64,000 nt of DNA from Arenicellales bacterium (GTDB lineage: Bacteria; Pseudomonadota; Gammaproteobacteria; Arenicellales; Poriferihabitantaceae). The translations under genes and the position numbers were made by a program. The notes beneath the pieces were generated by a model that saw only the letters and a program-made list of their open reading frames with translations, was not told the DNA's origin and ran no database searches. The stretch is from contig CBDDOJ010000002.1 of NCBI GenBank assembly GCA_965231865.1, positions 493,837 to 557,836 on the forward strand. Direction: 5' to 3'. Below are positions 7,907-32,909 of the stretch, in pieces (within the stretch, counting starts at the first letter, position 1; every line of letters starts with the position of its first letter).

Positions 7907-8156
7907 TTAAAATAATTCTCGTATTTTCGGTATATTATTTTACCACAGAGTGATTACCAAATCTTAATATTACGAGTTGATGGGAGAGAAAGATCAACCA
8001 TCACCTCCACCCCGAGTCATGGTTGTCATCCGTGACCGCACGTTCCGTCGACCCCTGACTGGTACACCATCAGACGGATATTGACCGGTAAAAGCTGTGA
8101 AGCTTGACCCGTATCTTCAGCAGTGAACGGCATTTCGCCAGGGTGCCTAAGGGCAG

Positions 8157-13944: not shown

Positions 13945-15945
13945 ATGATTACTTCACTGCCCATGATAATGGGGGTTGTCGGCCTACTGGTCGCATTACT
14001 GGTATACAAAATGGTATTACGGTACCCGGCGGGGGAAGGCAAGGTTGCCGAGATCGGAGAAAAGATCCATCGGGGTGCCATGGTTTTCATGCGCCGGGAA
14101 TATGGCTATCTGACTATATTTGTCGCGGTGGTCGCACTGCTGATTTTCATCTCCGACCTTGGCGTCAAGACCATGCTTGCATTTCTGATTGGGGCGTTGT
14201 GTTCGGGGGTGGCCGGCTATATTGGCATGTATGCCGCAACCCATGCCAATGTCAGAACTACCACGGCGGCGGCACAGGTGGGGGCTGAAAGCGCGCTGGC
14301 AGTGGCGTTTTTCGGGGGCTCGGTGATGGGGTTGTGCGTGGCGGCCATGGGATTGCTGGGAATCGGTTTTCTCTACCTGCTGTTTGGCGGCGACCCGGAG
14401 ACGGCCCATGTGATTCACGGGTTCGGAATGGGGGCTTCTTCCGTTGCGCTGTTTTCCAGGGTCGGGGGTGGAATATTTACCAAGAGCGCCGATGTGGGGG
14501 CTGATCTGGTGGGGAAAGTGGAAGCCGGAATACCGGAAGATGATCCCCGAAACCCCGGGGTTATTGCGGACAATGTCGGGGACAATGTGGGCGATGTTGC
14601 AGGAATGGGGTCGGATATTTTCGAGTCGTATTGTGGTTCCATCATCGCAACCATCGCCATCGCCACCACCCTGCCTCCGGCAATGTTCAACCTGCTGGGG
14701 GAGCAGTCGGTGCTGATGTTCCTTCCCCTTGCGATGGCATCCGCCGGCCTCGTTTGTTCCATTTTGGGGATCGGGCTGGTGAAAATGAATACCGCCAGGT
14801 CTCCGGAGCTCGCGCTTCGAATTGGAACCATCGGGACCACCGTCCTGTTCATGGTGGTTTCCTATTTCGTGATCCGGTACATGGAAGTGAGTGTGAATGT
14901 ATGGGGGTCCGTAGCGGTGGGCGCAGTGGGCGGAATCGGCATTGGACTGATTACCGAATACTATACCGGTGGAAAACCGGTTCGTAATATTGCGAAAAGC
15001 GGGGAAACCGGTCCGGCGACCGTCATGATTGCCGGCCTCGCGGTGGGGATGGAATCGGTGGTGGTTCCGTTGCTGATCATCGCCTCCATCATCCTGGTCT
15101 CAAGCCACCTGACCGGCCTGTACGGTGTCGGCATCGCCGCAGTCGGCATGCTGGCCACCGTCGGCATTACCATGGCCATTGACGCCTATGGCCCGGTTGC
15201 CGACAACGCAGGTGGGATCGCGGAAATGGCCGGCATGGGCAAGGAAGTCCGTGAAATCACCGATTCCCTGGACGAACTGGGCAATACCACGGCTGCCATT
15301 GGAAAGGGCTTTGCCATTGGCGCAGCCGCCTTGGCGGCGTTGGCCATTATTTCCGCTTTTATCGAAACCGTTTCTCATCTGAACCCGGGTTTTTCATTGG
15401 AACTCAGTGACCCCAGGGTGTTGGCCGGCATGTTCCTGGGCGGCATCTTCCCCTTCCTGGTCTCCAGTATTACGATGAATGCGGTGGGCAGTGCGGCGTT
15501 CGAAATGATTCATGAAATTCGTCGTCAATTCAAGGAAATACCCGGGCTGATGGAGGGGACTGCGGAGCCGGATTCTGACCGCTGTGTGGACATTGCCACC
15601 CGGGCGGCACTCAAGCGGATGATTTTGCCGGGAGTGCTGGCCGTCGCAGCGCCCGCCGTGGTCGGATTTGGCCTTGGGGCAACGGCCCTGGGGGGCATGC
15701 TCGGCGGGGCACTCCTTGGCTGTGTGCTGATGGCCTTGACAATGGCCAATGCGGGAGGGGCCTGGGACAATGCCAAGAAATACATCGAAAAGGGAAACTT
15801 GGGCGGCAAGGGCTCGGAGGTTCATGCCGCGGCGGTGGTGGGGGATACGGTGGGGGACCCATTCAAGGACACCTCCGGGCCGTCCATGAACATCCTGATT
15901 AATGTCATGGCCATTGTCAGCCTGGTGATTGCCCCGCTCCTGTAG
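13945..15945 (+). CDS. hppA: membrane-integral pyrophosphate-energised cation pump (M-PPase)
   Basis: 666 aa and polytopic, with [31 protein letters not shown] and [14 protein letters not shown]. The Ala in the last motif suggests the K+-dependent subtype. Confidence 0.95.
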
Positions 15946-16046: not shown

Positions 16047-16238
16047 TCAGGAAAATTCCTGCCCCACTTCAAAATCAAAGATTTCGTTGAGCCTGAACTC
16101 GGTGATTAGTTGATCAACCGCCGCCTGGCCATGCTCCTTGGACACTTGCGTGAGGATGAGCTGTGCGGAATGCCGGTTGTACGACCCTCCGAAATCCGCC
16201 TGTACCTGAATGAGCTGTCGGGCCTTGTCCAGGGTCAC
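16047..16238 (-). CDS. possible 63-aa protein translationally coupled to pfp
   Basis: Its GTG start overlaps the pfp TGA (GTGA). The product is VTLDKARQLIQVQADFGGSYNRHSAQLILTQVSKEHGQAAVDQLITEFRLNEIFDFEVGQEFS. It was extracted from ORF 16047..16463, and no family was recognised. Confidence 0.3.
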   Translation of the reverse strand: MTLDKARQLIQVQADFGGSYNRHSAQLILTQVSKEHGQAAVDQLITEFRLNEIFDFEVGQEFS

Positions 16239-17500
16239 AGGCTGAAGTTCGTGTCGAGTTTTTTCCGGACCGGATGGTTTTCCAGTCGAACATAGTCCGG
16301 CAGGCCCTCCTGATAGGGAGGGTAATCTTCCCCCAGCATCAGCGGCTGCAGGTAATCCCGGCACTTTTGGGTAATGCCAAAACCATCCTCTGAGATATAG
16401 TCCCTGGGCAGTTTCTTTTCCACGTTGGCAACCCGGCTCAGCTCGACGGTGCCAATTTTCCATTCATAGGGGTGGTTGCGGACCCGGTCAATGGTGGGCA
16501 TGACGGAATTTTTACCCTGCAGCACCAGTTCCACGGCGGTTTTGCCCAATGCGTAAGCCTGTTCCACATCCGTTCTGGATGCAATATGCCGGGCGGACCG
16601 CTGCAGATAGTCGGCCACCGCCCAGTGGAATTTAAATCCCAGGTCCTGCTTCACCATGTTCGCCACCACCGGGGCCACGCCACCGAGCTGGGCATGCCCA
16701 AAGGCATCCATCTGGCCCTGGTCAGACAGAAACCTGCCGCCTGGGTCGCAGACCCCTTCGGATACCACGACGGACACATAGCCGTATTGTTCCACTTTTC
16801 GGCGGACTTCAGCGATGAATTGATTCCGGTTGAACGGGATTTCCGGAAAAAGCACAAGGATGGGAAGTTTTGTCCTGTCATCCGATGCCATTGCGCCGGC
16901 TGCCGCGATCCACCCGGCATGGCGTCCCATCACTTCCAGGATAAAGACCTTGGTGGAGGTTTCCGCCATGGAAGCCACGTCAAAGCTGGCTTCACGGGTG
17001 GAGATGGCGATGTACTTGGCCACGGACCCGAACCCCGGGCAGTTGTCCGTAAAAGGGAGATCATTGTCCACGGTCTTGGGGATGTGGATGGCCTGGATGG
17101 GGTATTTTGTCTCGGTGGACAGCTGGGCAACCTTCAAGCATGTATCCGCCGAATCGCCCCCGCCGTTATAGAAAAAGTAGCCGATGTCATGGGCGTTGAA
17201 AACGTCCATCAGCCGTTGGTATACCCGGCGATTTTCTTCGATGCCCTTCAGCTTGTACCGGCAGGAACCAAAGGCACCTGACGGCGTGTGGCGAAGTTTT
17301 GAAATGGCGGACGCCGATTCGGCTGACGTATCGATGAGGTCTTCGTGCAGGGCACCGAGGATGCCATGGCGGCCGGCATAGACGTTGCCGATTTTGTCCC
17401 GGTGTTTCCTGGCTGTTTCGATGACGCCGGCGGCGGAAGCATTGATGACCGCGGTCACCCCGCCGGACTGGGCATAAAAGGCATTTGGGATGCGGTTCAT
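16235..17500 (-). CDS. pfp: PfkA-family phosphofructokinase, probably PPi-dependent
   Basis: 421 aa, with NAFYAQSGGVTAVINAS, NGGGDSADT and PKTVDNDLP. PPi specificity is inferred from the family type and the hppA neighbour. Confidence 0.85.
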   Translation of the reverse strand: MNRIPNAFYAQSGGVTAVINASAAGVIETARKHRDKIGNVYAGRHGILGALHEDLIDTSAESASAISKLRHTPSGAFGSCRYKLKGIEENRRVYQRLMDVFNAHDIGYFFYNGGGDSADTCLKVAQLSTETKYPIQAIHIPKTVDNDLPFTDNCPGFGSVAKYIAISTREASFDVASMAETSTKVFILEVMGRHAGWIAAAGAMASDDRTKLPILVLFPEIPFNRNQFIAEVRRKVEQYGYVSVVVSEGVCDPGGRFLSDQGQMDAFGHAQLGGVAPVVANMVKQDLGFKFHWAVADYLQRSARHIASRTDVEQAYALGKTAVELVLQGKNSVMPTIDRVRNHPYEWKIGTVELSRVANVEKKLPRDYISEDGFGITQKCRDYLQPLMLGEDYPPYQEGLPDYVRLENHPVRKKLDTNFSL

Positions 17501-18023: not shown

Positions 18024-19274
18024 CTATTCGTTGATCGTGCGCTGACATTGCTTGGTTACAACCTGTTCAATCCGTTGCAGTGCCGCATACTCGCCATAAA
18101 GATTTTCAAAGTTTTCCCTCACAGGCTGCAGGTTCTCCAGCAGCCTTGTAGCAACACCCAGAACTTGATTCTGGAGGAACTGAGGACGCAATCCACACTG
18201 GTTCGCCAGTGTGTCCCAATGCTTCAGGGTTACAACCCCCGGATTTCTTTCATCGCCTACGGAAAGAGCCAGGTGATAATCAATGCGTTCTATGGCACAG
18301 GTGCAAACGAGGTCATAAAAAGGCGCTAACCGGATTTCACCATTGGCCTGATGCAGTAGAGAAAGGTTTTTGGCGTGGCCATCCGAGTTGCCTGCCAGGA
18401 CGTTGAAGGCTTGCCAGCGAAGTAAATGCTGTACGTCGTTGGCAGGGTCGGTGGAGACATCCTGAATCAGCCGATAACAGTCGGCGAATGTCGGACCACC
18501 GTCCTCCTGATACTTGCGCTCGTGCCCGAAACCCAGCGCCTGACAAAAATCTTCCTGATGCAACCTCGCAATCCGGCCATTTTCAAGTGGGTGTCGATCA
18601 TAACGCTCAATCAAAGCATAGTGTGTGTCAGCTATTGAACGCAGCTGAATGTCGACCACTGGCAAGCCGATGGCTTCCGCCAGCAGGGTGGTAAAAGTCT
18701 CGTAGGCTGGCAGGTGCCGGTAATCGGACAATTCAAATTTCAGGATGTGGCTGGAGGGCGATTCCTTCTTGGGTAGCCAGTAGTCGTCGCCTTTCACCAA
18801 TACAGGGCATTTGTCCTGAGCTCCGGCTAAAGACAGCCGGGGGCGTTCATTGACAGTCCAGGTATACACTTGACCCCGGCGGGCAACCAGATTGGTGAGT
18901 TCTTCGTCCGAGATTTTGTGGTACTCGTGCTCCGTTGAGGGTTGATGCTCTGCTTGTAATAGGGAAAGCGCACCCGCACATTCACCGCCAATGGCGCGAA
19001 GCAGATCAAAGTCGGTATTGGCGATTTTGAGGTCGCGAACTATCTGATAGCGGACGCCTCCTTCTGGCAGCAGATTGGCGAAAAAGCGGTGAGCGAGATC
19101 TTCTTCAGGCGTAAAATCTTCCTTGCGCAGAGGCAGTGTATAGGAGATGGCAAATTCACCTTGTGCCAGCCATTCCTCTTCGTAACGAAAGCCGATCAGT
19201 CCCTGGGTGTTTCGCCACAGGTAGCCGACGAGTCGTTGATCGCTCCAGACATTGAGGCCATCGGGGTCAAGCAT
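18024..19274 (-). CDS. hipA: HipA-family serine/threonine kinase toxin
   Basis: MLDPDGLNVWSDQRLVGYL, LSLAGAQDK and NSDGHAKNLSLL are present. The start is taken at the ATG that overlaps the hipB end by 8 nt. Confidence 0.9.
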   Translation of the reverse strand: MLDPDGLNVWSDQRLVGYLWRNTQGLIGFRYEEEWLAQGEFAISYTLPLRKEDFTPEEDLAHRFFANLLPEGGVRYQIVRDLKIANTDFDLLRAIGGECAGALSLLQAEHQPSTEHEYHKISDEELTNLVARRGQVYTWTVNERPRLSLAGAQDKCPVLVKGDDYWLPKKESPSSHILKFELSDYRHLPAYETFTTLLAEAIGLPVVDIQLRSIADTHYALIERYDRHPLENGRIARLHQEDFCQALGFGHERKYQEDGGPTFADCYRLIQDVSTDPANDVQHLLRWQAFNVLAGNSDGHAKNLSLLHQANGEIRLAPFYDLVCTCAIERIDYHLALSVGDERNPGVVTLKHWDTLANQCGLRPQFLQNQVLGVATRLLENLQPVRENFENLYGEYAALQRIEQVVTKQCQRTINE

Positions 19275-19551
19275 GGCGTCCTCCATCCTTTTTTGATTGC
19301 GGTCTGGATGACGCGTCCCCACGGGGCTGAACCACCACTTCCAGCCCCAATGTGCGCAGTGCTTGCAACACTTTGCCTAGTTCTGCGGTTTCCTTGCCGC
19401 GCTCAAACTCAGATAGAAAGCGGGTACTCAGATTGCCCAGTCCGGAAATCGTTTCCAGTGTCAGCTTCCGTTGTTTTCGGTGAGCACGCACAAGCTTGCC
19501 GAGGTCTTCAGCCGATCGAACCGCACTGTATTGCACCGGATCGTTTCTCAT
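19267..19551 (-). CDS. hipB: HipB-like XRE-family antitoxin
   Basis: 94 aa with the HTH segment LGKLVRAHRKQRKLTLETISGLGNLSTRFLSEFERGK, immediately upstream of hipA. Confidence 0.85.
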   Translation of the reverse strand: MRNDPVQYSAVRSAEDLGKLVRAHRKQRKLTLETISGLGNLSTRFLSEFERGKETAELGKVLQALRTLGLEVVVQPRGDASSRPQSKKDGGRHA

Positions 19552-19568
19552 CTTTCACCTGCAAAAAA

Positions 19569-19689
19569 TTACCGTACGGTAAAAAATAGCATGTGTATGA
19601 TGTCAGAGCAACAAATATATACCGTACGTGATAATTGTACGTAATTTTGATTCAGGGATGGATTTTATATCACGTACGGTAAAAAATAG
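19569..19689 (-). promoter_or_regulatory. hipBA promoter/operator region with repeated CGTACG-core palindromes
   Basis: There is a perfect 14-bp palindrome TTACCGTACGGTAA (19569-19582). Related sites are at 19620-19631, 19635-19644 and 19670-19682. CGTACGGTAAAAAATAG recurs exactly 100 bp apart. On the minus strand, TTGCTC, 17 nt, then TATTTT lies just upstream of the first palindrome. Confidence 0.45.
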
Positions 19690-19722
19690 GCTGCGGGCAT
19701 ATAAAAAAACAGGCCGGTTCCA

Positions 19723-19905
19723 CTATAACCACGTGTCGATGAGGTCTTCGTGCAGGGCACCGAGGATGCCATGGCGGCCGGCATAGACGTTGCCGATTTT
19801 GTCCCGGTGTTTCCTGGCCGTTTCGATGACGCCGGCGGCGGAAGCATTGATGACCGCGGTCACCCCGCCGGACTGGGCATAAAAGGCATTTGGGATGCGG
19901 TTCAT
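19723..19905 (-). pseudogene. 5' fragment of pfp (58 codons)
   Basis: It encodes MNRIPNAFYAQSGGVTAVINASAAGVIETARKHRDKIGNVYAGRHGILGALHEDLIDT, identical to the pfp N-terminus, then diverges and stops. Confidence 0.85.
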
Positions 19906-19928
19906 TTTGTGCGGGGATCGGCTAATTC
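19731..19928. repeat. direct repeat copy 2, left part (interrupted by the IS)
   Basis: It aligns to 17326-17523 at an offset of 2405 bp, with 3 mismatches. Confidence 0.9.
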
Positions 19929-21715
19929 GTGTCTGGCATGAAAACCCCTTGATTTTGCGCGACCGGAGGAGTGAAAGCAATTTTGCAGGGTCCCTCCGGC
20001 GAATTGCGGAGGAGATTTTCGCTCAATGCCGCTTATTTTCGGCGGTTTGAGGCACGATTTGGCGGAATTTTACGCTCCAGGTCATAGGAGACCCTCCCCG
20101 TCGGTGCGGGGGCAGATCTGACCGGGTGAATAGGGCGTCAGGCAGCCAGGCGGTGTCTGTCACGATGCGTTTTCTCCGATTTCTGCAACATCCGGCCGAG
20201 TTGGTGCAGGTTGGCAGCAACGATGGCCAGCCCGACGGTTCTCTCGAACCCGTCGGCTCCTTTCGCCCGGACTCTGTCAAGTCCGTGATGCTCCAGGTGA
20301 TTGATTGCTGACTCCACGGCGGGGTGCTGTTTCCGTGCCCGGGAAAAGTTTTCTTCGGACTCCCGTTCCTGGTCCGCGGCATTCAGTCGGCCCTTTTTCG
20401 GCAAGGCCACCATGTCAAGCAGATTCTCCAGACGCCTGCGATTCTCCGGGCTGTGAAAGCCCCGGTCAAAGCTGCACTCCTGCAGGTCCGGGTGCATCTC
20501 CTGGCAGGACTCAATCAGGGGAACCGCTACATCCACATCCCCGCCTTGCCACATGATCTGATAATCCAGCACAAACTGGTGCTGGTCCTCGACAATGGCC
20601 AGGGGAACTCCGAGTTCCACCGGACGCCCCGCCTTGCCTTTCGATATCCACCGGGTATGCTCCTCGAATACCGAAAAGATTTTCTCGGAATGCTCAATCA
20701 CTTCGCCCTGCAACACCCGGCGGTCGATCTGGTCGGTGAATAGGTGGATATGCTTCAGATAATGGCGGATCTTCTCCATCCAGGCGGTGGATGCCCCGGC
20801 TTCCTTCAGGGCAACCAGAGATAACTCCGCTTTCCCGGCCATCTTCCGGCAGATCTTCAGATACTCCGACACCTGATCCGGTCGCTTCGTCCAAAGCCGG
20901 GCTGTGGCGACTCGATTGAACCGCTTGCGCACCTGTTTGGTCAGGTGCCGGTGCTGCCGCCAGCCTTTCACATCATGCAATTCACAAGCCTTGCCGGTTT
21001 CGCGGATCAGGCAACGAGTGGAATCCAATAGGAGGTTGAAATCAGTCGGGTAGTGGACGTCCGTCTCCACCACGAAACTATCACATCGCCCGGCCAACGT
21101 TTCTCCAGGCTTTTTTTTTGCGACCGTATGCCCCGTGGAAACCACCAGTCGGTTGACCTCACGCAGCAGTTCCGGAGTCAGCAGGGCCACATTGTCCACG
21201 ATCCGGGCCCGGACGTAGTAGGTATTGTCGATGCCGTCCATACCATGACCCAACATCTTGCGTATCGTTCGGTGCTCGTTGGCCAGATCATGCAGACGGT
21301 CGAAATCGCAGTTCAGTCCTTCCTTGAGAATGCCCAATACCAGAATCCGCCACATCTCCATTCCCGGACGCCCAACGGTGCGGTCGGTATCCGGTCGGAT
21401 ATGGGCTTCGAGCAACTCGAACAGCTCCTTGCGGGTATCCGGGTCGGTATAGATCAGTTGAAGGCCCTTCAACAGGGCCGGAATGTCGTCCCGGGACTTT
21501 TCGTCGAGGGCGATCTGTTCAATCGGGACGGAACCCAGAGGGGATTGGAGATCGATGACCGTTCTCATGCTGTACAATGCCTCGAAGATTTGCCGTAAAT
21601 GGCGGTTTCAGGGGGTTTTCCCTTCGGATTGTACTATATTCGCGAAATCTTCGCCACAAAAAAACGGGTAGTTATTCAAATAAATCAATCGTTTATGGGG
21701 TTTTCTGACAAGCAC
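19929..21715 (-). mobile_element. intact insertion sequence (~1.8 kb) with imperfect terminal inverted repeats and a 6-bp target duplication
   Basis: The ends are GTGTCTGGCATGAAAACCCC (19929-) and GGGGTTTTCTGACAAGCAC (-21715). TAATTC is present on both flanks (19923-19928 and 21716-21721). There is a single transposase ORF. Confidence 0.8.
20138..21577 (-). CDS. DDE transposase (IS4/IS5/ISNCY-like)
   Basis: 479 aa, with DSFVVETDVHYPTD, FDRGFHSPEN and HPAVESAINHLEHHGLDR. The exact IS family was not determined. Confidence 0.8.
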   Translation of the reverse strand: MYSMRTVIDLQSPLGSVPIEQIALDEKSRDDIPALLKGLQLIYTDPDTRKELFELLEAHIRPDTDRTVGRPGMEMWRILVLGILKEGLNCDFDRLHDLANEHRTIRKMLGHGMDGIDNTYYVRARIVDNVALLTPELLREVNRLVVSTGHTVAKKKPGETLAGRCDSFVVETDVHYPTDFNLLLDSTRCLIRETGKACELHDVKGWRQHRHLTKQVRKRFNRVATARLWTKRPDQVSEYLKICRKMAGKAELSLVALKEAGASTAWMEKIRHYLKHIHLFTDQIDRRVLQGEVIEHSEKIFSVFEEHTRWISKGKAGRPVELGVPLAIVEDQHQFVLDYQIMWQGGDVDVAVPLIESCQEMHPDLQECSFDRGFHSPENRRRLENLLDMVALPKKGRLNAADQERESEENFSRARKQHPAVESAINHLEHHGLDRVRAKGADGFERTVGLAIVAANLHQLGRMLQKSEKTHRDRHRLAA

Positions 21716-21721
21716 TAATTC

Positions 21722-21759
21722 AGTGACTTGCCGGTACTGCCGGAACCAACCCCTTCCCG
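21722..21759. repeat. direct repeat copy 2, right part (beyond the IS)
   Basis: AGTGACTTGCCGGTACTGCCGGAACCAACCCCTTCCCG is identical to 17524-17561. Confidence 0.85.
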
Positions 21760-22120
21760 ATCTCTCGTTCGTCGGCGTACCGATGAGGGAATCCCAGGCG
21801 GTACCGGGGCTGGGAATCACCGCAACTTCGCACAACCCGGTGGTGCCGGCAGCCGGGCGGTGGAGGATGAACAGGCTGATTGCATGGAAGATCACGAAGC
21901 GGGTGCATTCCGGCAGGGCAGATTCCCGGTTCGGGACGGATTGTTCCGGGTCCAAGGGACATTCTGGTCGTGATTGGGGCCCCGGCCTTTTTTGGTGCAG
22001 AAATGGGCGGTTGCGGAGGCGGTGACAGTGCGCCCTTTCAGGGCGTACCACTGTTTTGCGCTGACACGCAACAGGATTCATTTTTGACATCGTATATGAT
22101 GTGATCCACTATTCAGTGTT

Positions 22121-22545
22121 GTGCATAGATTCGTTTTGGATGCTGACGTTGTCGTGGTGGTCATGCGTAGCCCAATTGGGACATCTGCGGCTTTATTGGG
22201 AAAAGTGCTGGATCAATGGGTCACGATGCTGACCAGCGTGCCGCTGTTTTTTGAATATGAAGCGCAGTGTACCTCCCCTTCATTGGACCGCTGCAGGATT
22301 AACGCAAGAGCAGGCGAGTGTATTTTTGAGTGGCTTGGCGGCGTTGATCACACCGGTGAAAATGCATTATTCATGGCGTCCATCGCTGCGGGACCCCAAT
22401 GACGAAATGGTGTTGGAAACGGCCGTCAATGGACGTGCTGATCATGATCGTTACCTTCAATTTGCGGGACTATGGTAGGGTGCCAGACCGTTTCAATATC
22501 GAGGTTCTGAGACCGGGTACCGCGATCAGGAGAGTAAGAAAATGA
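22121..22545 (+). pseudogene. PIN-domain toxin gene with at least two frameshifts
   Basis: Three frames together give RFVLDADVVVVVMRSPIGTSAALL..SVPLFFEYEA / GLTQEQASVFLSGLAALITPV..WRPSLRDPNDEMVLETAVNGRAD / IVTFNLRDYGRVPDRFNIEVLRPG. The shifts lie near 22262-22275 and at GATCATGATC (22440-22449). Confidence 0.7.
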
Positions 22546-22796
22546 GTGAGAAGTCCACCTATCCATTAAGGTTGCCCAAATCGCTTAAAGATGAAGTAGC
22601 CAAAGTGGCCAAACGAGACGGGACAAGTATGAATCAGTTTATCGCCATTGCGGTGGCTGAAAAAATCTCTGCGTTGGAAACCGGGCAATTTTTTGCTGAA
22701 CGCGCCAAAGGCTCGGATCTTGAAGCCTTCAGGGCGATTCTGTTTCGTCCCGGTGGTGAACTCCCCCGCTCTGGGGATGAAGTAGTCGATCAATAA
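22542..22796 (+). CDS. ribbon-helix-helix (CopG/Arc-like) antitoxin
   Basis: 84 aa with YPLRLPKSLKDEVAKVAKRDGTSMNQFIAIAVAEKIS. Its ATG overlaps the stop of the PIN reading frame (ATGA). Confidence 0.75.
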   Translation: MSEKSTYPLRLPKSLKDEVAKVAKRDGTSMNQFIAIAVAEKISALETGQFFAERAKGSDLEAFRAILFRPGGELPRSGDEVVDQ

Positions 22797-22812
22797 CCCT
22801 GAATCTGGAAGG

Positions 22813-23157
22813 ATGAACACCGCCGCCATTAAAATCCGGATGACGCCTTCCCACCCGGGGGAGTTCGTTCGGCTTGAAATCATTGAAGCCCTGAATCTGA
22901 CCATTTCGGCGGCCGCAGAGATTCTTGGTGTACGCCGGGCAACACTCTCAGCCTTGCTGAATGGCAAGGCTGCCCTATCACCCGAAATGGCGTTGCGTCT
23001 TGAAAAGGCTTTCGATATCCATATGGATCTGTTGATGCGGATGCAGGCCTGGCATGACGTTGCACGCATGCGTCGCCTGGCGGATAAAATTGCTACGGAT
23101 GTACGTCGATATGAAAGCCGAACTGGTGTATCAGGAAATGGTGGACGAATACGATGA
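22813..23157 (+). CDS. higA: HigA-family XRE antitoxin-like protein
   Basis: The segment HPGEFVRLEIIEALNLTISAAAEILGVRRATLSALLNGKAALSPEMALRLEKAF is the HigA signature. No higB is adjacent. Confidence 0.8.
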   Translation: MNTAAIKIRMTPSHPGEFVRLEIIEALNLTISAAAEILGVRRATLSALLNGKAALSPEMALRLEKAFDIHMDLLMRMQAWHDVARMRRLADKIATDVRRYESRTGVSGNGGRIR

Positions 23158-24014
23158 CCGACAATCGCGATTTTCCTGCCCACGCCACATTCTCGCAACG
23201 CTATGGATACGAACCATTACCAGAGCCAATGCGGCTTGAGGAAATTTCGGATGATTTGAGGCGCGAAATTTGGAACGGTGTTTATTCTTACATCAGCTCT
23301 TTAGATCTATATGGAGTTACAGAAAAACGCATACAAGTTGCATTGGGAAGATATCACAGTAAGCCGGAGAGTCAAATTAACACTAACTACATCCCGGTAG
23401 AGGGGGATATGGAAAACACCATTCTGTATCACGACTTCAATAAGGTTTTGGACTTTCTTGAAATTGTAATTGAAGAAAAGGTTATTCCTAAGTACCTCCG
23501 ATTGGAAATTGGGAGATTATTTGAAAAGCATGGAGCCGCTTATCGGCTGGATTTTTCAAGTACTCCCTATCGATTCGTTCCAAGTGCAAGCAAAGAACAG
23601 AGTGAATCAACACAACATGCTCTCCAAACGCTCCATGAAGGTAACATGGATGGAGCCACAACACATTTGCGTCAAGCGGCGGAACATATCAACGCATGCC
23701 AGTATGCTGATGCGATCACCGATTGCATTCTTGCGGTCGAGTCCGTGGCCCGGATAATCGACCCCCAATCCAGTGCTACGTTGGGACCGGCACTACATTC
23801 CCTTGAACAGACCGGCGTGCTGAATCATCCAGTGCTCAAGCAGGCGTTCCTTAAACTATACGGCTATACCAACGACGAACAGGGTCTGCGCCATGCTCTT
23901 CTTGATCAGGATGCCGCCGGTGTCGGTCTGTCCGAGGCTGTGTTCATGTTCGGGGCCTGCGCGTCCTTCGCTGCTTACCTGGTGCAGAAGCACCAGCAGG
24001 CTGGAGGGACATGA
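23154..24014 (+). CDS. AbiJ-like protein (AbiJ-NTD-like N-terminus, Abi_C/HEPN-like C-terminus)
   Basis: 286 aa. The N-terminus FSQRYGYEPLPEPMRLEEISDDLRREIWN and the C-terminal LKLYGYTNDEQGLRHALLD resemble AbiJ-type abortive-infection proteins, from memory of the family. Its ATG overlaps the higA stop (ATGA). Confidence 0.55.
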   Translation: MTDNRDFPAHATFSQRYGYEPLPEPMRLEEISDDLRREIWNGVYSYISSLDLYGVTEKRIQVALGRYHSKPESQINTNYIPVEGDMENTILYHDFNKVLDFLEIVIEEKVIPKYLRLEIGRLFEKHGAAYRLDFSSTPYRFVPSASKEQSESTQHALQTLHEGNMDGATTHLRQAAEHINACQYADAITDCILAVESVARIIDPQSSATLGPALHSLEQTGVLNHPVLKQAFLKLYGYTNDEQGLRHALLDQDAAGVGLSEAVFMFGACASFAAYLVQKHQQAGGT

Positions 24015-25313: not shown

Positions 25314-26999
25314 ATGCAGTTTCAAAGAATCATGCTGCTTGGCGCTCTGGGCCTGGTACTGGTCATGCTCTGGCAGTCCTGGGTAGAGTTCCAGGCAACG
25401 TATACCGGGTACAGCGAACAGAACCAGGCATCCGGGGGAGCCGATGGCGAGGCCGTGGACAGGTTCGAGGATGTTCCCGACGCGCCGGAAGCCACGACCC
25501 CTTCGGTGGCAACCGCCTCCCCGGAACCCGTCCCGGTGGCCGAGGGAAGTGGAGACCAGGGAAAACTGATTAGGGTGACCACAGACCTGGTCAATGCCGA
25601 GATTGATACCCTGGGGGGTGACTTGGTCCGGGTGGAATTGCTCCAGCATCCCGTGAGTGTCGATACCCCGGACCAGCCTTTCATACTGATGCATCGAGAT
25701 CCCTTCTCGCTGTATGTTGCACAAAGCGGGCTGATTGGAAAGGACCGGGAATACCCCAACCACAATACGCAGTACACGGCCTCCACCTACAGTTATCACC
25801 TCGGTGATGCCGACGGCATCGATGTGGTCCTGAACTGGACGTCCCCCGATGGGGTGGTCTATGACAAGATCTTCCACTTCAAGCGGGACAGTTATCGTGT
25901 GGAGATCGATTTTCGTGTCCAGAACCACAGCGATACGCCCTGGACGGGCTTTGCCTACGGTCAACTCAAGCAAACCGAGGTGGAAGCCCCGGGTTCAATG
26001 GGCTTTCTCGGGAGATTGCCCAGCTACAACGGCGCGGCGATCTATACGGAAGCGGACAAGTACGAAAAAATTGACTATGGCGAGATCCAGGAAGGGCCCC
26101 TGAATGTCAGCACCCCGGATGGCTGGGTCGCCATGCTCCAGCATTATTTCGTTTCAGCGTGGCTGCCGGTGGGGTCGGAAAACTACCAGATCTATTCCGG
26201 CATCAACCGGGACACGGCAAACCCCCAGTATCGGATCGGATATAAAACCACGGACCCCACCGTGGTGGAACCAGGTCACGAAGGAGTGGTCAATACGGTA
26301 TTGTTCGTGGGCCCCAAGGAACAGCGCCGCCTGGATGAGCAAGGGGCCAATGGACTGAAGCTCACGGTGGACTACGGGTGGCTGACGCCGGTGGCAAACC
26401 CCTTGTTCTGGCTGCTTGACAAGATTTTCGGCTTCACCCAAAACTGGGGCTGGGCCATCATACTGCTGACCTTCCTGGTCAAGCTGGTGTTCTACCCCCT
26501 GTCCGCCGCGAGTTACAAGTCCATGGCAAAGATGAAAAAGCTGCAGCCGCGGATGACCACGCTGAAAGAGCGTTACAGCGACGACAAGCAGAAGTTTCAA
26601 CAGGAAATGATGAAGCTGTACAAGGCTGAAAAAGTCAATCCGGCCGGCGGATGTCTTCCCATCCTGGTACAGATTCCGGTATTTATCGCGCTGTACTGGG
26701 TGTTGCTCGAAAGCGTGGAATTGCGCCAGGCCAGTTTCATGCTGTGGTTGACGGACCTGTCCCTTCCAGACCCGTATTTCGTGTTGCCCATCATCATGGG
26801 GGTCTCCATGCTCGCCCAGCATTTCCTTAATCCCGCCCCGGTGGACCCGCTCCAGAAAAAAATAATGATGGCGCTGCCGTTTGTCTTTACCGTTTTCTTC
26901 CTGTGGTTTCCGGCAGGACTGGTTCTTTACTGGGTGGTCAACAACCTGCTTTCGATTGCCCAGCAATACTACATCACCCGAAAATTTGCGGACTCCTGA
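25314..26999 (+). CDS. yidC: membrane protein insertase YidC
   Basis: 561 aa with NWGWAIILLTFLVKLVFYPL, KMKKLQPRM and NPAGGCLPILVQIPVFIALY. Confidence 0.95.
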   Translation: MQFQRIMLLGALGLVLVMLWQSWVEFQATYTGYSEQNQASGGADGEAVDRFEDVPDAPEATTPSVATASPEPVPVAEGSGDQGKLIRVTTDLVNAEIDTLGGDLVRVELLQHPVSVDTPDQPFILMHRDPFSLYVAQSGLIGKDREYPNHNTQYTASTYSYHLGDADGIDVVLNWTSPDGVVYDKIFHFKRDSYRVEIDFRVQNHSDTPWTGFAYGQLKQTEVEAPGSMGFLGRLPSYNGAAIYTEADKYEKIDYGEIQEGPLNVSTPDGWVAMLQHYFVSAWLPVGSENYQIYSGINRDTANPQYRIGYKTTDPTVVEPGHEGVVNTVLFVGPKEQRRLDEQGANGLKLTVDYGWLTPVANPLFWLLDKIFGFTQNWGWAIILLTFLVKLVFYPLSAASYKSMAKMKKLQPRMTTLKERYSDDKQKFQQEMMKLYKAEKVNPAGGCLPILVQIPVFIALYWVLLESVELRQASFMLWLTDLSLPDPYFVLPIIMGVSMLAQHFLNPAPVDPLQKKIMMALPFVFTVFFLWFPAGLVLYWVVNNLLSIAQQYYITRKFADS

Positions 27000-28356
27000 C
27001 CAGCTGGACAGGGCCGCTGCACCAGACACGGATACGATTGCCGCGGTCGCAAGCCCTCCGGGCAAGGGCGGGATCAGCATCGTTCGGGTTTCAGGACCCC
27101 GGGTTCCGGAGATTGCCCAGGGGCTGGCAGGGAGTCTTCCGGCGCCCAGGATGGCGGAATGCACCGCTTTTCGGGATGGAAACCACGCCCCCATTGATCA
27201 CGGCATCGCGCTGTATTTCCCGGCTCCGGAAAGCTATACCGGGGAGCATGTCCTGGAAATACAGGGGCATGGCAGCCCGGTTGTCATGGGTCTCCTGCTT
27301 CGCCGGTGCCTGGAACTGGGCTGCAGGCATGCCAGGCCGGGAGAATTCAGTGAGCGGGCATTCCTGAACGGCAAACTGGACCTGGTCCAGGCGGAAGCGG
27401 TTGCCGATCTCATCGAAAGCAGCAACGAGTCGGCGGCGCAATCCGCCCTTCGGTCTCTGCAGGGAAATTTTTCCGTTCGCATTCACGATCTGGTGGATGA
27501 GGTCTGCGGGCTGCGGCTCTTTATTGAGGCCGCCATCGACTTTCCCGAGGAGGAGATCGATTTTCTGGAAGACGGCAACGTGATACAGCGCCTGGAACGG
27601 ATCGTGGAAAAGTTTGCGGCACTGCGGCAGTCGGTCCAGTTGGGAAAGCGGTTGCGGGACGGGCTCAAGGTGGTATTGACCGGGTTGCCCAACGCCGGGA
27701 AATCCAGCCTTTTGAATGCACTGTCCGAGGAACAGCGGGCCATTGTCAGCGAGTTGCCGGGAACAACCCGGGATACCCTCGACCAGACGATACTCCTTGA
27801 CGGCCTGCCGGTGGAAATCATTGACACGGCGGGAATACGCGATACGATCAACGAAATTGAGGCGGAAGGGGTGCGCAGGGCCCGGCATGCACAACAGGGA
27901 GCGGACCTGATACTGGTTGTCGTCGACGATGCCAGGATCAGCGAGGGGGAATTCAATGCCCTGATGGACGCACAGGCCGGCGGCGTCCGGAAGATTGTTG
28001 TCAGGAATAAAATCGACCTCAGTCACCGCACCACCGTGGAGAATGATGACGAGGTGTGTATCTCCGCCCTGACTGGCCAGGGGCTTGCCGGCCTCAAGGA
28101 AAGGATCAAGGAAATCGCCGGCTTCAGGAGCCTGGATGATTCCTGTTTCATTGCCCGGGAAAGACACCTGGATGCCCTCAACCGGGCAGAGAGCTTTCTG
28201 AAAAGCGGTCTTCAGCAGCAGCGAGAGTTTCGGGCCGGGGAACTGCTCGCCGATGACCTTCATTCATGCCAAAAGGCCCTGGGCGAAATTACCGGAGAGA
28301 TTTCCAGCGATGATTTGCTCGGCATGATTTTCAGTTCCTTTTGCATCGGCAAGTAA
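26986..28356 (+). CDS. mnmE: tRNA modification GTPase MnmE
   Basis: DTIAAVASPPGKGGISIVRVSG, GLPNAGKSSLLNAL and a C-terminal FCIGK are present. No in-frame ATG or GTG lies between the yidC stop and the conserved N-terminus, so the start is uncertain: TTG 26986 or CTG 27004. Confidence 0.85.
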   Translation: MRTPDQLDRAAAPDTDTIAAVASPPGKGGISIVRVSGPRVPEIAQGLAGSLPAPRMAECTAFRDGNHAPIDHGIALYFPAPESYTGEHVLEIQGHGSPVVMGLLLRRCLELGCRHARPGEFSERAFLNGKLDLVQAEAVADLIESSNESAAQSALRSLQGNFSVRIHDLVDEVCGLRLFIEAAIDFPEEEIDFLEDGNVIQRLERIVEKFAALRQSVQLGKRLRDGLKVVLTGLPNAGKSSLLNALSEEQRAIVSELPGTTRDTLDQTILLDGLPVEIIDTAGIRDTINEIEAEGVRRARHAQQGADLILVVVDDARISEGEFNALMDAQAGGVRKIVVRNKIDLSHRTTVENDDEVCISALTGQGLAGLKERIKEIAGFRSLDDSCFIARERHLDALNRAESFLKSGLQQQREFRAGELLADDLHSCQKALGEITGEISSDDLLGMIFSSFCIGK

Positions 28357-28424
28357 AGTATTTGATATATAATGCGAATGTCCGGACAGTCGGAGGGTTG
28401 ATCGCTTCCGTGGAACAAATCAAG

Positions 28425-29462
28425 ATGACAACGAACACGCCTCAACACAGTTACACCCGAAACATCCCGTTGCAAATGACCCTGGTGCTGGCGCTGCTTG
28501 CCGTGGTGACCATATGGCAGCGGGACATCGTCTACCAGATCTATTTTGCCAACCAGGTGAATACCGTTGGCTGGGCAATCAACGGAGGCATTGCCCTCCT
28601 TTTTGTCAGCGGGCTGGCGGAACTGGTCAAACGGTTTTTTGAATACCGTAACCAGGAGCTGTCAATCAATCGTTTTATCGCCAACGTCACCCACAATGAA
28701 GACCCGTTGCTGGGCATTGAGGAGTCGGACATGGTGGCAGAACGGTTCCTGACGCTGAAGTCCCTGAACCGCCGCCGGGCCAATATCAACCAAAGCGCCC
28801 TGGCGGCGACCCTGTTGGCGTCGGAATCAAGCCGCAACAGTTTCCTCAAGTTTGTGCACAATGTCCTGATCCTGACCGGCGTGTTCGGCACCATCGTTTC
28901 CCTCTCGATTGCCCTGTTGGGGGCCTCCGACATTTTACAGAGCAGCGGCCAGGTTGCCCCGGCGGCCGGCACCGGGCAGGCGGAGGGTCTGGGTACGATG
29001 ATCTTTGGCATGTCCACGGCACTGTCCACCACCTTGACGGCCATCATGGCGTACCTGTTTTTCGGGTATTTCTACATCAAGCTCACCGATACCCAGACGT
29101 TTCTGATCAGTAAAATTGAAGAAGTCACGGCCACCACACTGCTGCCTCATCTGCAATTGAACCAGGATGTCGTGATCAAGGATTATTCGGACAGTATTCT
29201 TGCGGCCACTGAACTGGTCAAAACCCTGACCCAATCCCAAAAAGCGTATGCCGAGTCTGCGGATTCCCTGCGACTGGCCGCACAGGAACTCACGGACCAG
29301 GCAGCACGGGTGACCGACCAGCACGGGGCGTTGCAGGATTTGCTGCCCCGAATCCATGACATGATTGAGCAACAGCAAAACACCTCCAGACACAATGCGG
29401 AAAACATGGATGAAGTCGTCGCACTGTTGAGAAGGGGTTTTCGTCTCCGGTCTGACGGGTAG
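28425..29462 (+). CDS. MotA/TolQ/ExbB-like proton-channel family membrane protein with a helical C-terminal tail
   Basis: 345 aa from an internal ATG, with four hydrophobic helices. The last two (LILTGVFGTIVSLSIALLGA and MIFGMSTALSTTLTAIMAYLFFGYF) resemble the MotA_ExbB channel core. About 110 aa of Q/E/A/L-rich tail follows. Confidence 0.65.
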   Translation: MTTNTPQHSYTRNIPLQMTLVLALLAVVTIWQRDIVYQIYFANQVNTVGWAINGGIALLFVSGLAELVKRFFEYRNQELSINRFIANVTHNEDPLLGIEESDMVAERFLTLKSLNRRRANINQSALAATLLASESSRNSFLKFVHNVLILTGVFGTIVSLSIALLGASDILQSSGQVAPAAGTGQAEGLGTMIFGMSTALSTTLTAIMAYLFFGYFYIKLTDTQTFLISKIEEVTATTLLPHLQLNQDVVIKDYSDSILAATELVKTLTQSQKAYAESADSLRLAAQELTDQAARVTDQHGALQDLLPRIHDMIEQQQNTSRHNAENMDEVVALLRRGFRLRSDG

Positions 29463-29473
29463 GGGCGCCTCCC

Positions 29474-30985
29474 GTGCCGGAATCCAGGGGATTTATCGAT
29501 CTTAGGGTCGGGCATGGCGCCGCCGGGATCGGCGATGAAAGCATCTGGCCGTCTTTCACGGATATCATGACCGTGATTGTCATGATATTCATGATGGCAC
29601 TGGTGATCATCATGGTACGGAATTTCGAGTTGAATCGTGAACTGGTCTCCACGATTTCCGCCAAGGAAGCCACCACCCGGGCCAGCGAGCAGCTTGCAGC
29701 AGAACTCACGGAACTGTCCGGGTTGCTGGAGGATGCCGAAAATCGGGGTGCATTGTTACAGGCCGACCTGGAGTCGGGGCTCAGGAGACTGGCGGCACTG
29801 ACCTCGGAACATGCGTTGCTGACCTCGGAACATGAAGCGGTTGTCCTGCAACGTGAACAGCTGGAACAGGAAAACCTGGGGCTTGAGGCCGACCGGAAAG
29901 CCTCTTTGGTGGAAATCGTCAAACTCAACACCAATGCACAGATGCTGAATCGGCAACTGGATGCGTTGAGCCAGGAACTGGCGATTCTGCAGGTCCAGTC
30001 GGACGAGCAGATTGCATCGTTGACGGCGCAGAAACAGGGCCTGGGAGAAAAACTGGACACGGTTTCCCGGCAGCTGGAGGAACTCACGGCGCAATGGTCC
30101 AGGGCCCAATCGGAAAACCGGGAACTGTCCCGGGAAGTGGAGGCATTGCAGGCCGGCCGGGCGGAGGCCGAGCAGCGCTACACGGTTGCCCGGGAAGATA
30201 TCCTGCAACTCGAGGAACTGGTCCGGCGCCGGGAATCCGAAATCGTTGTCCTGGAGGCGGACCGGGAAGCGTCGAGGGTGGCAATGGATGACCTCAATGC
30301 CAATGTCCGGGCACTGAACCGGCAGATTGAAACCTTAAGCCGGCAGTTTTCTGCATTGGAAATCGAATCCGGCGAACAGATCACGTCGATTTCCGAAGAG
30401 AAACGCAGTCTGAGCGCCAACCTGGACCTTGTTTCCGGGCAACTGGATGTCTTCAGGGAGCTATTGGTGCAGGCCCAGGCACAAAACCGGGAATTGTCCC
30501 GGGAAGTGGAGGCATTGCAGGCCGGCCGTTCGGAAGCCGAGCAGCGCTATACGGTTGCCCGGGAAGATATCCTGCAACTTGAGGAACTGGTCCGGCACCG
30601 GGAATCCGAAAATGCAGACCTTGCGGCCCGGTCCGCAAGTTTCAGCGAGCAATTTGAATCCCTGCAGGATGAATACGACCGGTTGACCGAAGAATATCGC
30701 AGGCTCATCCGGGCGGCGCGAAGTCCGGCGGGGAAATACGTGGTGGAAGTCCGGTTGGAAAAATCCGCGGCAGGGTTTGTTTACCGGATACGTGAACCCG
30801 GGGACAGCCAACCGGTGGTGGTCACCAAAGCCCGGTTGGAGGAGAGGTTGCAGGCCATGAAAACAGAGAAGGGAAAATCCCTCTACACCAAAATTATCAT
30901 TCCCGGAAACAACCGGCTTTCCCACAATGAGGCCTGGCAGTTTACCTGGGAAATCCTGCGGAAGTACGACTACTATTACCAGTAG
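29474..30985 (+). CDS. ExbD/TolR/MotB-like single-pass protein with a ~350-aa duplicated coiled coil
   Basis: 503 aa from a GTG start. The TM segment WPSFTDIMTVIVMIFMMALVII carries the stator-type Asp. A long heptad-like E/L/Q/R region holds two 123-aa repeats. The C-terminal VVEVRLEKSAAGFVYRI..LYTKIIIPGNNRLSHNEAWQFTWEIL is shaped like an ExbD periplasmic domain. Confidence 0.65.
   Translation: MPESRGFIDLRVGHGAAGIGDESIWPSFTDIMTVIVMIFMMALVIIMVRNFELNRELVSTISAKEATTRASEQLAAELTELSGLLEDAENRGALLQADLESGLRRLAALTSEHALLTSEHEAVVLQREQLEQENLGLEADRKASLVEIVKLNTNAQMLNRQLDALSQELAILQVQSDEQIASLTAQKQGLGEKLDTVSRQLEELTAQWSRAQSENRELSREVEALQAGRAEAEQRYTVAREDILQLEELVRRRESEIVVLEADREASRVAMDDLNANVRALNRQIETLSRQFSALEIESGEQITSISEEKRSLSANLDLVSGQLDVFRELLVQAQAQNRELSREVEALQAGRSEAEQRYTVAREDILQLEELVRHRESENADLAARSASFSEQFESLQDEYDRLTEEYRRLIRAARSPAGKYVVEVRLEKSAAGFVYRIREPGDSQPVVVTKARLEERLQAMKTEKGKSLYTKIIIPGNNRLSHNEAWQFTWEILRKYDYYYQ
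30114..30243 (+). repeat. intragenic repeat core, copy 1
   Basis: This 130 bp encodes NRELSREVEALQAGRAEAEQRYTVAREDILQLEELVRRRESE. About 8 mismatches separate it from the copy at 30483-30612. Confidence 0.9.
30483..30612 (+). repeat. intragenic repeat core, copy 2
   Basis: It lies 369 bp (123 codons) downstream of copy 1 and encodes NRELSREVEALQAGRSEAEQRYTVAREDILQLEELVRHRESE. Confidence 0.9.
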
Positions 30986-31028: not shown

Positions 31029-32909
31029 ATGAAATACCCGGAAAAATTTGAAGTCATCGTGATTGGAGGCGGCCACGCCGGCGTGGAGGCTGCGTTGGCG
31101 GCTGCGCGGATGCAGTGCAAAACGCTTCTGGTGACGCACAACATCGAAACCATTGGACAGATGTCCTGCAATCCGGCTATCGGGGGCATCGGCAAGGGGC
31201 ACATTGTCCGGGAAATTGATGCAATGGGCGGGGTGATGGCCAGGGCCATTGACCAGGCAGGCATACACTTCCGGGTATTGAATGCACGCAAGGGTCCCGC
31301 GGTTCAGGCCACCCGGGCCCAGGCCGACCGGGCGCTGTATAAAATGGCGATACGCGGGTGTGTCGACCGACAGGCCAACCTCACCGTTTTCCAGCAGGGG
31401 GTGGATGATCTGCAGGTGCGGGGAGGCCGGATTACCGGTGTTCGGACCCAGTTGGGCGTGGAATTCGAAGCCCCGGTCGTGATCCTTACTGCCGGGACGT
31501 TTTTGAACGGAAGGATTCATATTGGCATGGACAACGCCCAGGGAGGCCGGGCCGGGGACCCGCCCTCCATTGCCCTGGCGCACCGGTTGCGGGAACTGCC
31601 GCTGAATGTCGAGCGGTTGAAAACCGGCACGCCGCCGCGTATCGATGGAAAGACCATCGACTACGATAACCTGGAGGTCCAGCCCGGGGATGACCCGGTT
31701 CCGGTGTTTTCATTTACCGGTGACCCGTCCGAGCACCCCCGGCAAATACACTGCCATATTACCCACACCAACGAACAAACCCATGCCATCATCCGTGGTG
31801 CCCTGGACCGCTCTCCCATCTACGGGGGGGTCATTGAAGGCGTGGGCCCGCGGTACTGTCCCTCCATAGAAGATAAAGTGGTTCGGTTTGCCGGGCATGA
31901 AAGCCACCAGATATTCATTGAGCCGGAAGGGTTGAATACCGCTGAAATCTATCCAAACGGAATCTCTACCAGCCTGCCCTTTGATGTCCAGTTTTCCCTT
32001 GTCAGGACCATCCGGGGATTTGAAAACGCGTTGATTACACGGCCGGGGTATGCCATTGAATACGATTTCTTTGATCCCAGGGGATTGAAGGATTCCCTGG
32101 AAACAAAATGCATTGACGGGTTGTTTTTCGCCGGGCAGATCAATGGAACCACCGGGTATGAAGAGGCCGCGGGACAGGGCCTGATTGCGGGCCTGAATGC
32201 AGCATTGAGGATCCAGGGTGAAGCCCCGTGGTGTCCGGCACGCAGTGAAGCCTATATCGGGGTGATGATTGACGACCTCGTAACCCGGGGGACTGCGGAG
32301 CCATACCGGATGTTTACGTCCCGGGCAGAATACCGGCTGCAACTGCGGGAAGACAATGCGGATTTGAGACTAACGGAAAAGGCACACCAGCTGGGGCTGG
32401 TCAGTGACCGGCGGGTCCGGATTCTTGAGAACAAAAGAAACGCCATCGAAAAGGAAAAAGCCCGGCTGGAAAAAACCTGGATACATCCGGACAAAACGGA
32501 CAGGCAAACGGTGCAGGACATCCTCGGGCAGCCATTGCAGCGGGAAGCCAATTTAATGGATTTGCTCAGAAGACCCGAAATCAGCTACCAGGACGTGGTT
32601 GCACTGGGGGGTCTGGAGCATCCCCTTGTAGAGATGCAAAGTATCCGGCAACTGGAAATCCAGGCCCGTTACAGCGGTTATATCGAGCGTCAGGTTGCGG
32701 AAATCGCACGCCTGGAGAAAAGCAATGGGGTGAAGATTCCGGCGGACTTCAATTATGGCGATGTGCGCAACCTGTCCAGCGAAGTCCATCAGAAACTTTC
32801 CGAAGCCCGCCCCCAGACCATTGGCCAGGCTGCCAGGATTCCCGGGGTGACCCCTGCGGCCATCTCCCTGTTACTGGTCCATTTAAGGAAAATCAGGGAG
32901 GCGGCCTGA
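31029..32909 (+). CDS. mnmG: tRNA uridine-5-carboxymethylaminomethyl synthesis enzyme MnmG (GidA)
   Basis: 626 aa with [36 protein letters not shown] and [11 protein letters not shown]. Confidence 0.95.

Follow-up and report, generated by a model that had tools for sequence, protein, structure and literature searches.

Which machine is encoded by the two adjacent genes, here called A and B, that separate mnmE from mnmG in an Arenicellales bacterium (assembly GCA_965231865.1, contig CBDDOJ010000002.1)? The window that we analyzed, the whole stretch of 64,000 nucleotides (nt), carries the gene order rpmH-rnpA-yidD-yidC-mnmE-[A-B]-mnmG, with mnmE ending at 28356 and mnmG starting at 31029. A first-pass annotation, made from the letters alone, had read two same-strand genes 11 nt apart in this gap, and both were recovered as open reading frames (ORFs) at exactly those positions and with that spacing (Table 1); the GTG of gene B is the earliest possible start downstream of an in-frame stop. 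Conserved homologues number in the hundreds to thousands for each protein, so A and B are real genes. In the databases, the proteins carry names such as "hypothetical protein" and "MotA/TolQ/ExbB proton channel family protein" or spurious coiled-coil names ("chromosome segregation ATPase"), and a literature search found no description of DUF7491 or of the A-B architecture. We put the probability at roughly 0.65 that A and B form a self-contained, ion-driven inner-membrane motor of the MotAB/ExbBD/TolQR/ZorAB superfamily, probably an A5:B2 complex, and that they represent an uncharacterized family. The pair shows those features of the MotAB/ExbBD superfamily that can be tested, namely the fold of A, a transmembrane (TM) helix with an Asp in B, and adjacent, co-oriented genes.

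By hydropathy, the 345-residue product of gene A has four hydrophobic segments (amino acids (aa) ~14-32, 50-68, 143-165, and 193-217), as had been read before. Its AlphaFold2 (AF2) model, built from 46 homologues, is all-helical with a predicted local distance difference test (pLDDT) score of 74. When this model was compared to the PDB with Foldseek, the top 50 matches were all A subunits of 5:2 motors (ExbB, TolQ, ZorA, MotA, and PomA), the best being 9ddo_B (E 4e-4, probability 1.0), and the target-normalized TM-scores were 0.4-0.6. This agrees with the MotA/TolQ/ExbB-like core that the first-pass annotation had proposed. TM3 and TM4 contain invariant Gly, Thr, and Ser residues, and hhalign aligned A 139-163 with TolQ 128-152, placing LTGVFGT156 on GLFGT145 and pairing Thr156 (28890-28892) with TolQ Thr145. 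A weak tblastn match joined TolQ 129-192 to A 140-210, and Pfam MotA_ExbB (PF01618) matched aa 131-232 at E 0.032, under the gathering cut-off. Gene A has more than 2000 homologues; PF01618 is recorded for P0065, P0068, P0101, and P0105, and one homologue is named MotA/TolQ/ExbB by NCBI. Searched against PDB sequences, the A profile left the membrane part unmatched and found only designed helical proteins, on the tail. The cytoplasmic loop between TM2 and TM3 is short (~70 aa, with two short helices in the AF2 model), and a torque-generating domain of the flagellar type is therefore absent. The helical cytoplasmic tail, first estimated at ~110 aa, measures ~128 aa; its pLDDT is lower (55-70), and it ends in the motif GFRLR (aa 338-342, 29436-29450), of which G338, F339, and R340 are invariant. 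Judged by its modeled fold, gene A encodes a membrane subunit of the MotA/ExbB/TolQ/ZorA superfamily with a Thr/Ser-lined TM3/TM4 core, presumably the pentameric "wheel" of the complex.

Gene B was expected to begin with a single TM helix carrying a stator-type Asp, and this was found: the helix spans aa 25-48, and its Asp30 is kept in 208/208 relatives that have the TM motif. A profile of the first 78 residues found ZorB chains as the best solved matches in the PDB (8vvn_B at 9.8e-5, followed by 8vvi_A and 8qyd_F), with ExbD at only 0.41, in line with the echo of Zorya ZorAB that had been suspected. Likewise, PADLOC matched aa 22-78 to ZorB3 (2.3e-7). The NCBIfam model PRK09039 matched aa 23-178 (1.7e-11) at 44.5 bits, far under the 305-bit family cut-off. 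Pfam ExbD matched the relatives P0196 (28.5 bits, over the 25.4-bit cut-off) and P0260 on residues ~25-120, which correspond to the TM region and not to the C-terminal domain. On sequence grounds, the TM helix of B is of the MotB/ZorB type with an invariant Asp. The GF(I/V)DLR motif that precedes this helix and the GFRLR motif that ends A are both invariant, alike, and predicted to be cytoplasmic. The two may dock onto each other, by analogy with Zorya, in which the N terminus of ZorB touches the tail of ZorA (PMC11946911), or both may bind the same factor in the cytoplasm, a possible second output.

Some 350 aa of heptad-like sequence with 123-aa repeats had been noted after the helix; we found a linker of ~340 aa and confirmed the duplication. 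The linker is rich in E, L, A, R, S, and Q, its hydrophobic autocorrelation peaks at lags of 7 and 14, and its Pfam matches are to coiled-coil families only. The two copies share 77% of their nt and 57/89 aa, a divergence too great for Tandem Repeats Finder, which reported no repeat. Among relatives, the linker between the TM helix and the C-terminal domain ranges from 104 to 486 aa (median 218, mode 150-200), and B as a whole measures 317-772 aa among the loci of species-representative genomes; the longest are those of L018 and L054 (both 772 aa), and that of L002 has 626 aa. Several lineages have expanded the coiled coil independently, so that gain of stalk repeats seems frequent, and the copy in the window was lengthened to ~340 aa by the 123-aa duplication. 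As a parallel dimeric coiled coil, 150-200 aa would extend over ~22-30 nm, about the width of the Gram-negative periplasm, and the longer versions of B must bend, fold back, or lie obliquely.

The C-terminal domain of B is strongly conserved, is modeled with a pLDDT of 84 overall and 94-97 in its core, and ends in an invariant Tyr-rich tip, YDYYYQ. It had been described as ExbD/TolR-like, and its order of strands and helices (strand-strand-helix-strand-helix) is compatible with an ExbD/TolR periplasmic domain. Our searches did not support this identification. Foldseek against the PDB gave nothing significant, with ExbD, TolR, OmpA, TonB, and TolA chains absent from the top 50; Pfam gave no match among 30 family members; a PDB profile search gave nothing; and hhalign alignments to TolR, ExbD, TolA, and Pal were nonsignificant (E 0.15-0.34; E 0.15 and probability 0.4 for E. 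coli TolR/ExbD). An exhaustive profile search of 1.84 billion representatives found 382 clusters that carry the domain, 352 of them below 1e-10, always at the C terminus. We also rejected an identity with TolA domain III or OmpA/Pal, since the hhalign alignments were nonsignificant. The earlier statement that the domain is not an OmpA-type peptidoglycan binder stands, as OmpA/MotB Pfam matches were absent in 20 members and hhalign against Pal was empty. From sequence, profile, and fold comparisons, we regard it as a new domain that forms a small closed family and does not grade into ExbD/TolR.

To place the pair in its genomic setting, we scanned one genome per species and obtained 69 loci, nearly all from metagenome-assembled genomes of Arenicellales, Ca. 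Poriferihabitaceae, and Ca. Spongiihabitans (sponge-associated Gammaproteobacteria), one of them (L001) 96% identical. A and B are tightly coupled and adjacent in all related loci examined, in 49 loci, the gap falls mostly between -4 and +50 nt, and the order rnpA-yidD-yidC-mnmE-A-B-mnmG is kept in ~55/69. Occasionally, extra DNA separates the pair from mnmE or from mnmG and carries unrelated genes (for an FkbM methyltransferase, a Tn5 transposase, a desaturase, and UbiA). The identity of A tracks that of mnmG (Spearman 0.84, n = 55 loci), which argues for vertical inheritance since a single insertion; in Arenicellales and the Ca. Poriferihabitaceae symbionts of sponges, the pair always occupies the mnmE/mnmG slot, where it appears vertically inherited. 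The GC content of the A-B region (0.55-0.58) equals that of its flanks, so that both earlier proposals, a base composition matching the host and a native origin rather than a recent import, are upheld.

Distant relatives (34-42% identity) occur in Zetaproteobacteria/Mariprofundaceae, Thiotrichaceae, Granulosicoccaceae, Chromatiales, and Sedimenticolaceae, and several carrier lineages are sulfur or iron oxidizers. The suggestion that the pair is lineage-specific is therefore not borne out, as it spans several marine Proteobacteria orders. A survey of the mnmE/mnmG slot, which the first-pass annotation had called for, gave a divided answer: the slot is kept in most of the 69 loci, but distant relatives place the pair elsewhere, and at least four different housekeeping contexts are covered. 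In the distant relatives, A and B remain adjacent, often with overlapping stop and start codons, in the arrangements uvrB-[A-B], EI24-[A-B]-tldD/pmbA, PALP/CBS-domain enzyme-[A-B], DUF455-[A-B]-cobW (beside rplS-trmD-rimM-rpsP), and [A-B]-Slp-Slp. ORF clustering of the distant loci left A and B alone as common to all. A co-varying third gene had also been envisaged; none was found in more than 75 related loci (distant loci, lineage-specific inserts, and Sedimenticolaceae, vent, and Zetaproteobacteria contigs), and the search gave lineage-specific neighbors only, namely a cobW GTPase, Slp lipoproteins, and tldD/pmbA. As expected beforehand, no Ton, Tol, flagellar, gliding, or Zorya component lies within ±15 kb of the pair. 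Tblastn of E. coli TolA, TolB, Pal, CpoB, ExbB, and ExbD against the window found nothing, none of these recurs in related loci, and the window contains no A-B paralogues or canonical Tol/Ton genes. Since only A and B are co-conserved over these contexts and no partner gene is near, the pair is an autonomous two-gene module in core regions of the chromosome.

Among the lineage-specific neighbors, a CobW/COG0523-type GTPase gene lies directly 3′ of B on the same strand in the Sedimenticolaceae-type loci L076-L078 (B ends at ~7955-8048), overlapping the B stop codon in L078. In a hydrothermal-vent genome (L072/L073, 10039-11108), two genes for Slp-family outer-membrane lipoproteins lie 3′ of B. 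These neighbors could be a coincidence or local partners.

How might such a module work? By homology with the solved 5:2 motors (PMC9389320, PMC11946911), five A subunits would surround two B TM helices, and protons or Na+ would pass between Asp30 of B and the Thr/Ser ring of A TM3/TM4, turning the A ring and the B dimer relative to each other. With a MotB-type topology, in which the N terminus is cytoplasmic and the Asp lies near the cytoplasmic end of the helix, the coiled coil and the C-terminal domain would be periplasmic, and the B dimer would project a parallel coiled coil into the periplasm with the Tyr-rich globular domain at its tip. Our best guess is that the ligand of this tip is a general constituent of the envelope, namely peptidoglycan or the periplasm-facing side of the outer membrane; we favor such a ligand because the Tyr-rich end is invariant and the pair is not accompanied by a dedicated partner gene. 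B would in effect be TolR and TolA in one chain, or a MotB with a very long linker, and either a fixed anchor in the style of MotB and ZorB or a turning shaft in the style of GldM; the variation in its length speaks for a flexible anchor or tether. Through the motor, membrane energy would be passed on to the outer layers of the envelope, for tethering, force transmission, or sensing of envelope integrity, with the conserved 128-aa cytoplasmic tail of A as a possible second output.

Several observations weigh against this motor. In sequence, A resembles known stators only very weakly (Pfam E 0.032, an empty PDB sequence search, and TM-scores of 0.4-0.6), and the 5:2 stoichiometry, the ion flow, and the rotation are features that we infer from homology alone. 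Linkers of 104-486 aa and a B of up to 772 aa fit poorly with a rigid rod of fixed span. Moreover, the C-terminal domain is unlike known folds that bind peptidoglycan, TolB, or the outer membrane.

Other explanations must be set against these same data. The pair could be a divergent Tol/Ton-type energizer that replaces or duplicates TolQR or ExbBD and works through a TolA/TonB-like transducer and outer-membrane partners whose genes lie elsewhere in the genome. ExbB and TolQ are indeed the top fold matches of A, P0196 passes the Pfam ExbD threshold in its TM region, the weak and nonsignificant C-terminal alignments to TolR, ExbD, and TolA domain III are in register, and a housekeeping context fits a core envelope function. 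We nevertheless consider this unlikely: A has four hydrophobic helices, not three; the long periplasmic extension of B makes a separate TolA or TonB seem unnecessary; tolA, tolB, pal, cpoB, and tonB are neither in the window nor recurrent in related loci; and the C-terminal profile stays at 382 clusters, with no drift into the very large ExbD/TolR family. There is a similarly small chance that A and B are a static scaffold or tether, anchoring a periplasmic coiled coil in the inner membrane with no ion-driven work. The Asp kept in 208/208 relatives and the invariant Thr, Ser, and Gly of A TM3/TM4 form an ion-translocation signature that would be needless in a passive anchor, although the widely varying length of the coiled coil and its recently expanded repeats are common traits of structural spacers and no output partner was found around the pair.

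The affinity of the B TM helix for ZorB (PADLOC 2.3e-7; 8vvn_B 9.8e-5), the ZorA chains among the fold matches of A, and its helical cytoplasmic tail would suit a minimal Zorya-like anti-phage sensor, with effectors that are absent or lie at another locus. Such a sensor is nonetheless very improbable, given that neither ZorC, D, E, F, and G nor a conserved third gene was found at the related loci, that B is without an OmpA-like peptidoglycan-binding domain, that the A tail has ~128 aa against the ~70-nm tail of ZorA (PMC11946911), and that vertical inheritance in fixed housekeeping clusters is unlike that of patchy defense islands. As for a defense system in general, we rejected this reading, PADLOC having matched only the ZorB TM region and coiled-coil noise from JetC and LmuB. 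Least probable by our estimate, and close to negligible, is a variant flagellar or gliding stator: the four-helix topology is MotA-like, and MotA and PomA are among the lower-ranked fold matches, but the ~70-aa cytoplasmic loop of A holds no torque-generating interface domain (criteria of PMC12505986), B is without an OmpA-like domain, no flagellar or gliding genes are nearby, and many carriers are sponge symbionts.

Table 1. Positions, in the 64,000-nt window, of genes A and B, their parts, and other features
Feature	Position	Strand	Details
Gene A	28425-29462	+	ORF, ATG start, 345 aa
A TM1 (aa ~14-32) and TM2 (aa ~50-68)	28464-28628	+	hydropathy; AF2 helices 13-31, 47-89
A TM3 (aa ~143-165, LTGVFGT156) and TM4 (aa ~193-217, GMSTALSTT)	28851-29075	+	conserved channel core, invariant columns
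A cytoplasmic helical tail (aa 218-345, ~128 aa)	29076-29459	+	AF2 helices 184-245, 254-296, 306-340
Gene B	29474-30985	+	ORF, GTG start, 503 aa
B N-terminal cytoplasmic motif GFIDLR (aa 6-11)	29489-29506	+	F7, D9, L10, R11 invariant
B TM helix (aa 25-48, WPSFTD30IM)	29546-29617	+	hydropathy; Asp30 codon 29561-29563
B coiled-coil linker (aa ~56-395)	29639-30658	+	heptad periodicity; proline-free over 340 residues
Duplication copy 1	29994-30258	+	repeat family D1
Duplication copy 2	30363-30627	+	spacing 369 nt (123 aa) from copy 1
B C-terminal globular domain (aa ~413-503)	30710-30982	+	RxARSPAGK, then strand-strand-strand-helix-strand-helix, end YDYYYQ
Sigma-70-like promoter match TCGGCA-16-TATAAT	28346-28373	+	10/12 positions match; weak evidence; 68-nt mnmE-A spacer
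HipA-family toxin	18024-19322	-	upstream patch
DDE transposase	20138-21577	-	upstream patch
AbiJ_NTD4-domain protein	23154-24014	+	upstream patch
Membrane H+-pyrophosphatase	13945-15945		side observation
Phosphofructokinase-family gene	16235-17500	-	adjoins membrane H+-pyrophosphatase

Sigma-70-like sites such as the one ahead of gene A are not more numerous in the region than expected from shuffled sequence. The longest ORF for mnmE opens with a TTG at 26881 and shares ~120 nt (26881-26999) with the 3′ end of yidC. Because many tblastn matches to mnmE in relatives start at a more internal position, translation probably begins downstream of 26881. A patch of mobile and defense-type genes (18024-24014) lies immediately upstream of rpmH-rnpA. 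A cluster of the type rpmH-rnpA-yidC-mnmE-mnmG is typical of origin-proximal regions, yet rpmH is without an adjacent dnaA in the window, and the cumulative GC skew climbs near-monotonically over 1-64000, with no origin-type switch. Away from the pair, the H+-pyrophosphatase gene beside a phosphofructokinase-family gene could reflect pyrophosphate-linked energy metabolism.

Ion-driven 5:2 motors are known for few processes, namely flagellar rotation, Ton uptake, Tol-Pal envelope maintenance, gliding and type IX secretion (T9SS), and Zorya defense, and each newly recognized family has revealed another way to turn membrane energy into work. The A-B family has thousands of members, is strongly conserved, is fixed in housekeeping clusters, and needs no dedicated neighbor gene. 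Its architecture, with the coiled coil on the B axle and a new domain at the tip, differs from that of all described families. We hold it as a tentative proposal, somewhat short of an even chance, that A and B are a new functional class of 5:2 motors, in which the B axle is itself the periplasm-spanning transducer and two genes suffice to link membrane energy with the outer envelope in marine Proteobacteria, sponge symbionts among them. Such a class might serve a Tol-like or envelope-sensing function and dispense with partners of the TolA, TolB, or Pal type. The function of A and B, once worked out, would show further bacterial uses of these motors and could bring to light an envelope process peculiar to marine lineages that have been little studied, many of them uncultured and some living in sponges.

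The first-pass annotation could not place the pair in a characterized system, and comparison with known systems leads to the same outcome, since it lacks defining features of each family tested. Zorya ZorA-ZorB (PDB 8vvn, 8qyd), a PMF-driven 5:2 motor that serves anti-phage defense, also has adjacent A and B genes; moreover, the B TM helix shares the pattern W..SF.D.M with its Asp, ZorB being the best solved match, and A has a ZorA/ExbB fold with a helical cytoplasmic tail. However, the long coiled coil is here on B and predicted to be periplasmic, whereas in Zorya it is on A and cytoplasmic, where the ZorA tail reaches ~70 nm (PMC11946911) and that of A has only ~128 aa. In place of the OmpA-like peptidoglycan-binding domain (not found by Pfam in 20 members, by hhalign against Pal, or by Foldseek), B has its novel C-terminal domain. 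The adjacent genes are mnmE and mnmG rather than effector genes (ZorC/ZorD, ZorE, or ZorF/ZorG), and the pair is inherited vertically in housekeeping loci, with no patchy distribution.

TolQRA and ExbBD-TonB provide the best fold matches of A and a common G-x-F-G-T motif, in which Thr156 of A corresponds to Thr145 of TolQ, and they share the plan of an inner-membrane ion motor plus a long periplasm-spanning element with a small C-terminal domain. They differ in having three hydrophobic helices in ExbB/TolQ against four in A, in a periplasmic domain (ExbD/TolR) or TolA domain III to which the C-terminal domain of B has no significant similarity, and in a separate transducer gene, tolB, pal, and tonB, all absent at this locus. 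In GldL-GldM, the inner dimeric subunit also has a long periplasmic extension; the GldM shaft, ~18 nm long, is thought to carry motor output across the periplasm, and the outer subunit has a cytoplasmic tail (PMC9389320). We detected no similarity between the two systems in sequence or fold, the sole GldL match being at chance level (E 0.4) on the helical tail of A; the GldM shaft is built of globular domains, whereas the B stalk is a coiled coil, and no T9SS genes were found nearby. PRK09039, compared by its NCBI model description as a "peptidoglycan-binding protein," is the best profile match of the N-terminal third of B, but B is without a known peptidoglycan-binding domain (no OmpA/MotB Pfam match in 20 members and no similarity to Pal). 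Finally, MotA-MotB and PomA-PomB share with the pair a four-helix A, a single-TM B with an Asp, and adjacent genes, whereas here A lacks the torque-generating cytoplasmic domain, B matches neither MotB_plug nor OmpA, and the context is not flagellar. In the scheme of PMC12505986, which sets criteria for that domain, A and B would fall into the non-flagellar class of "generic ion transporters."

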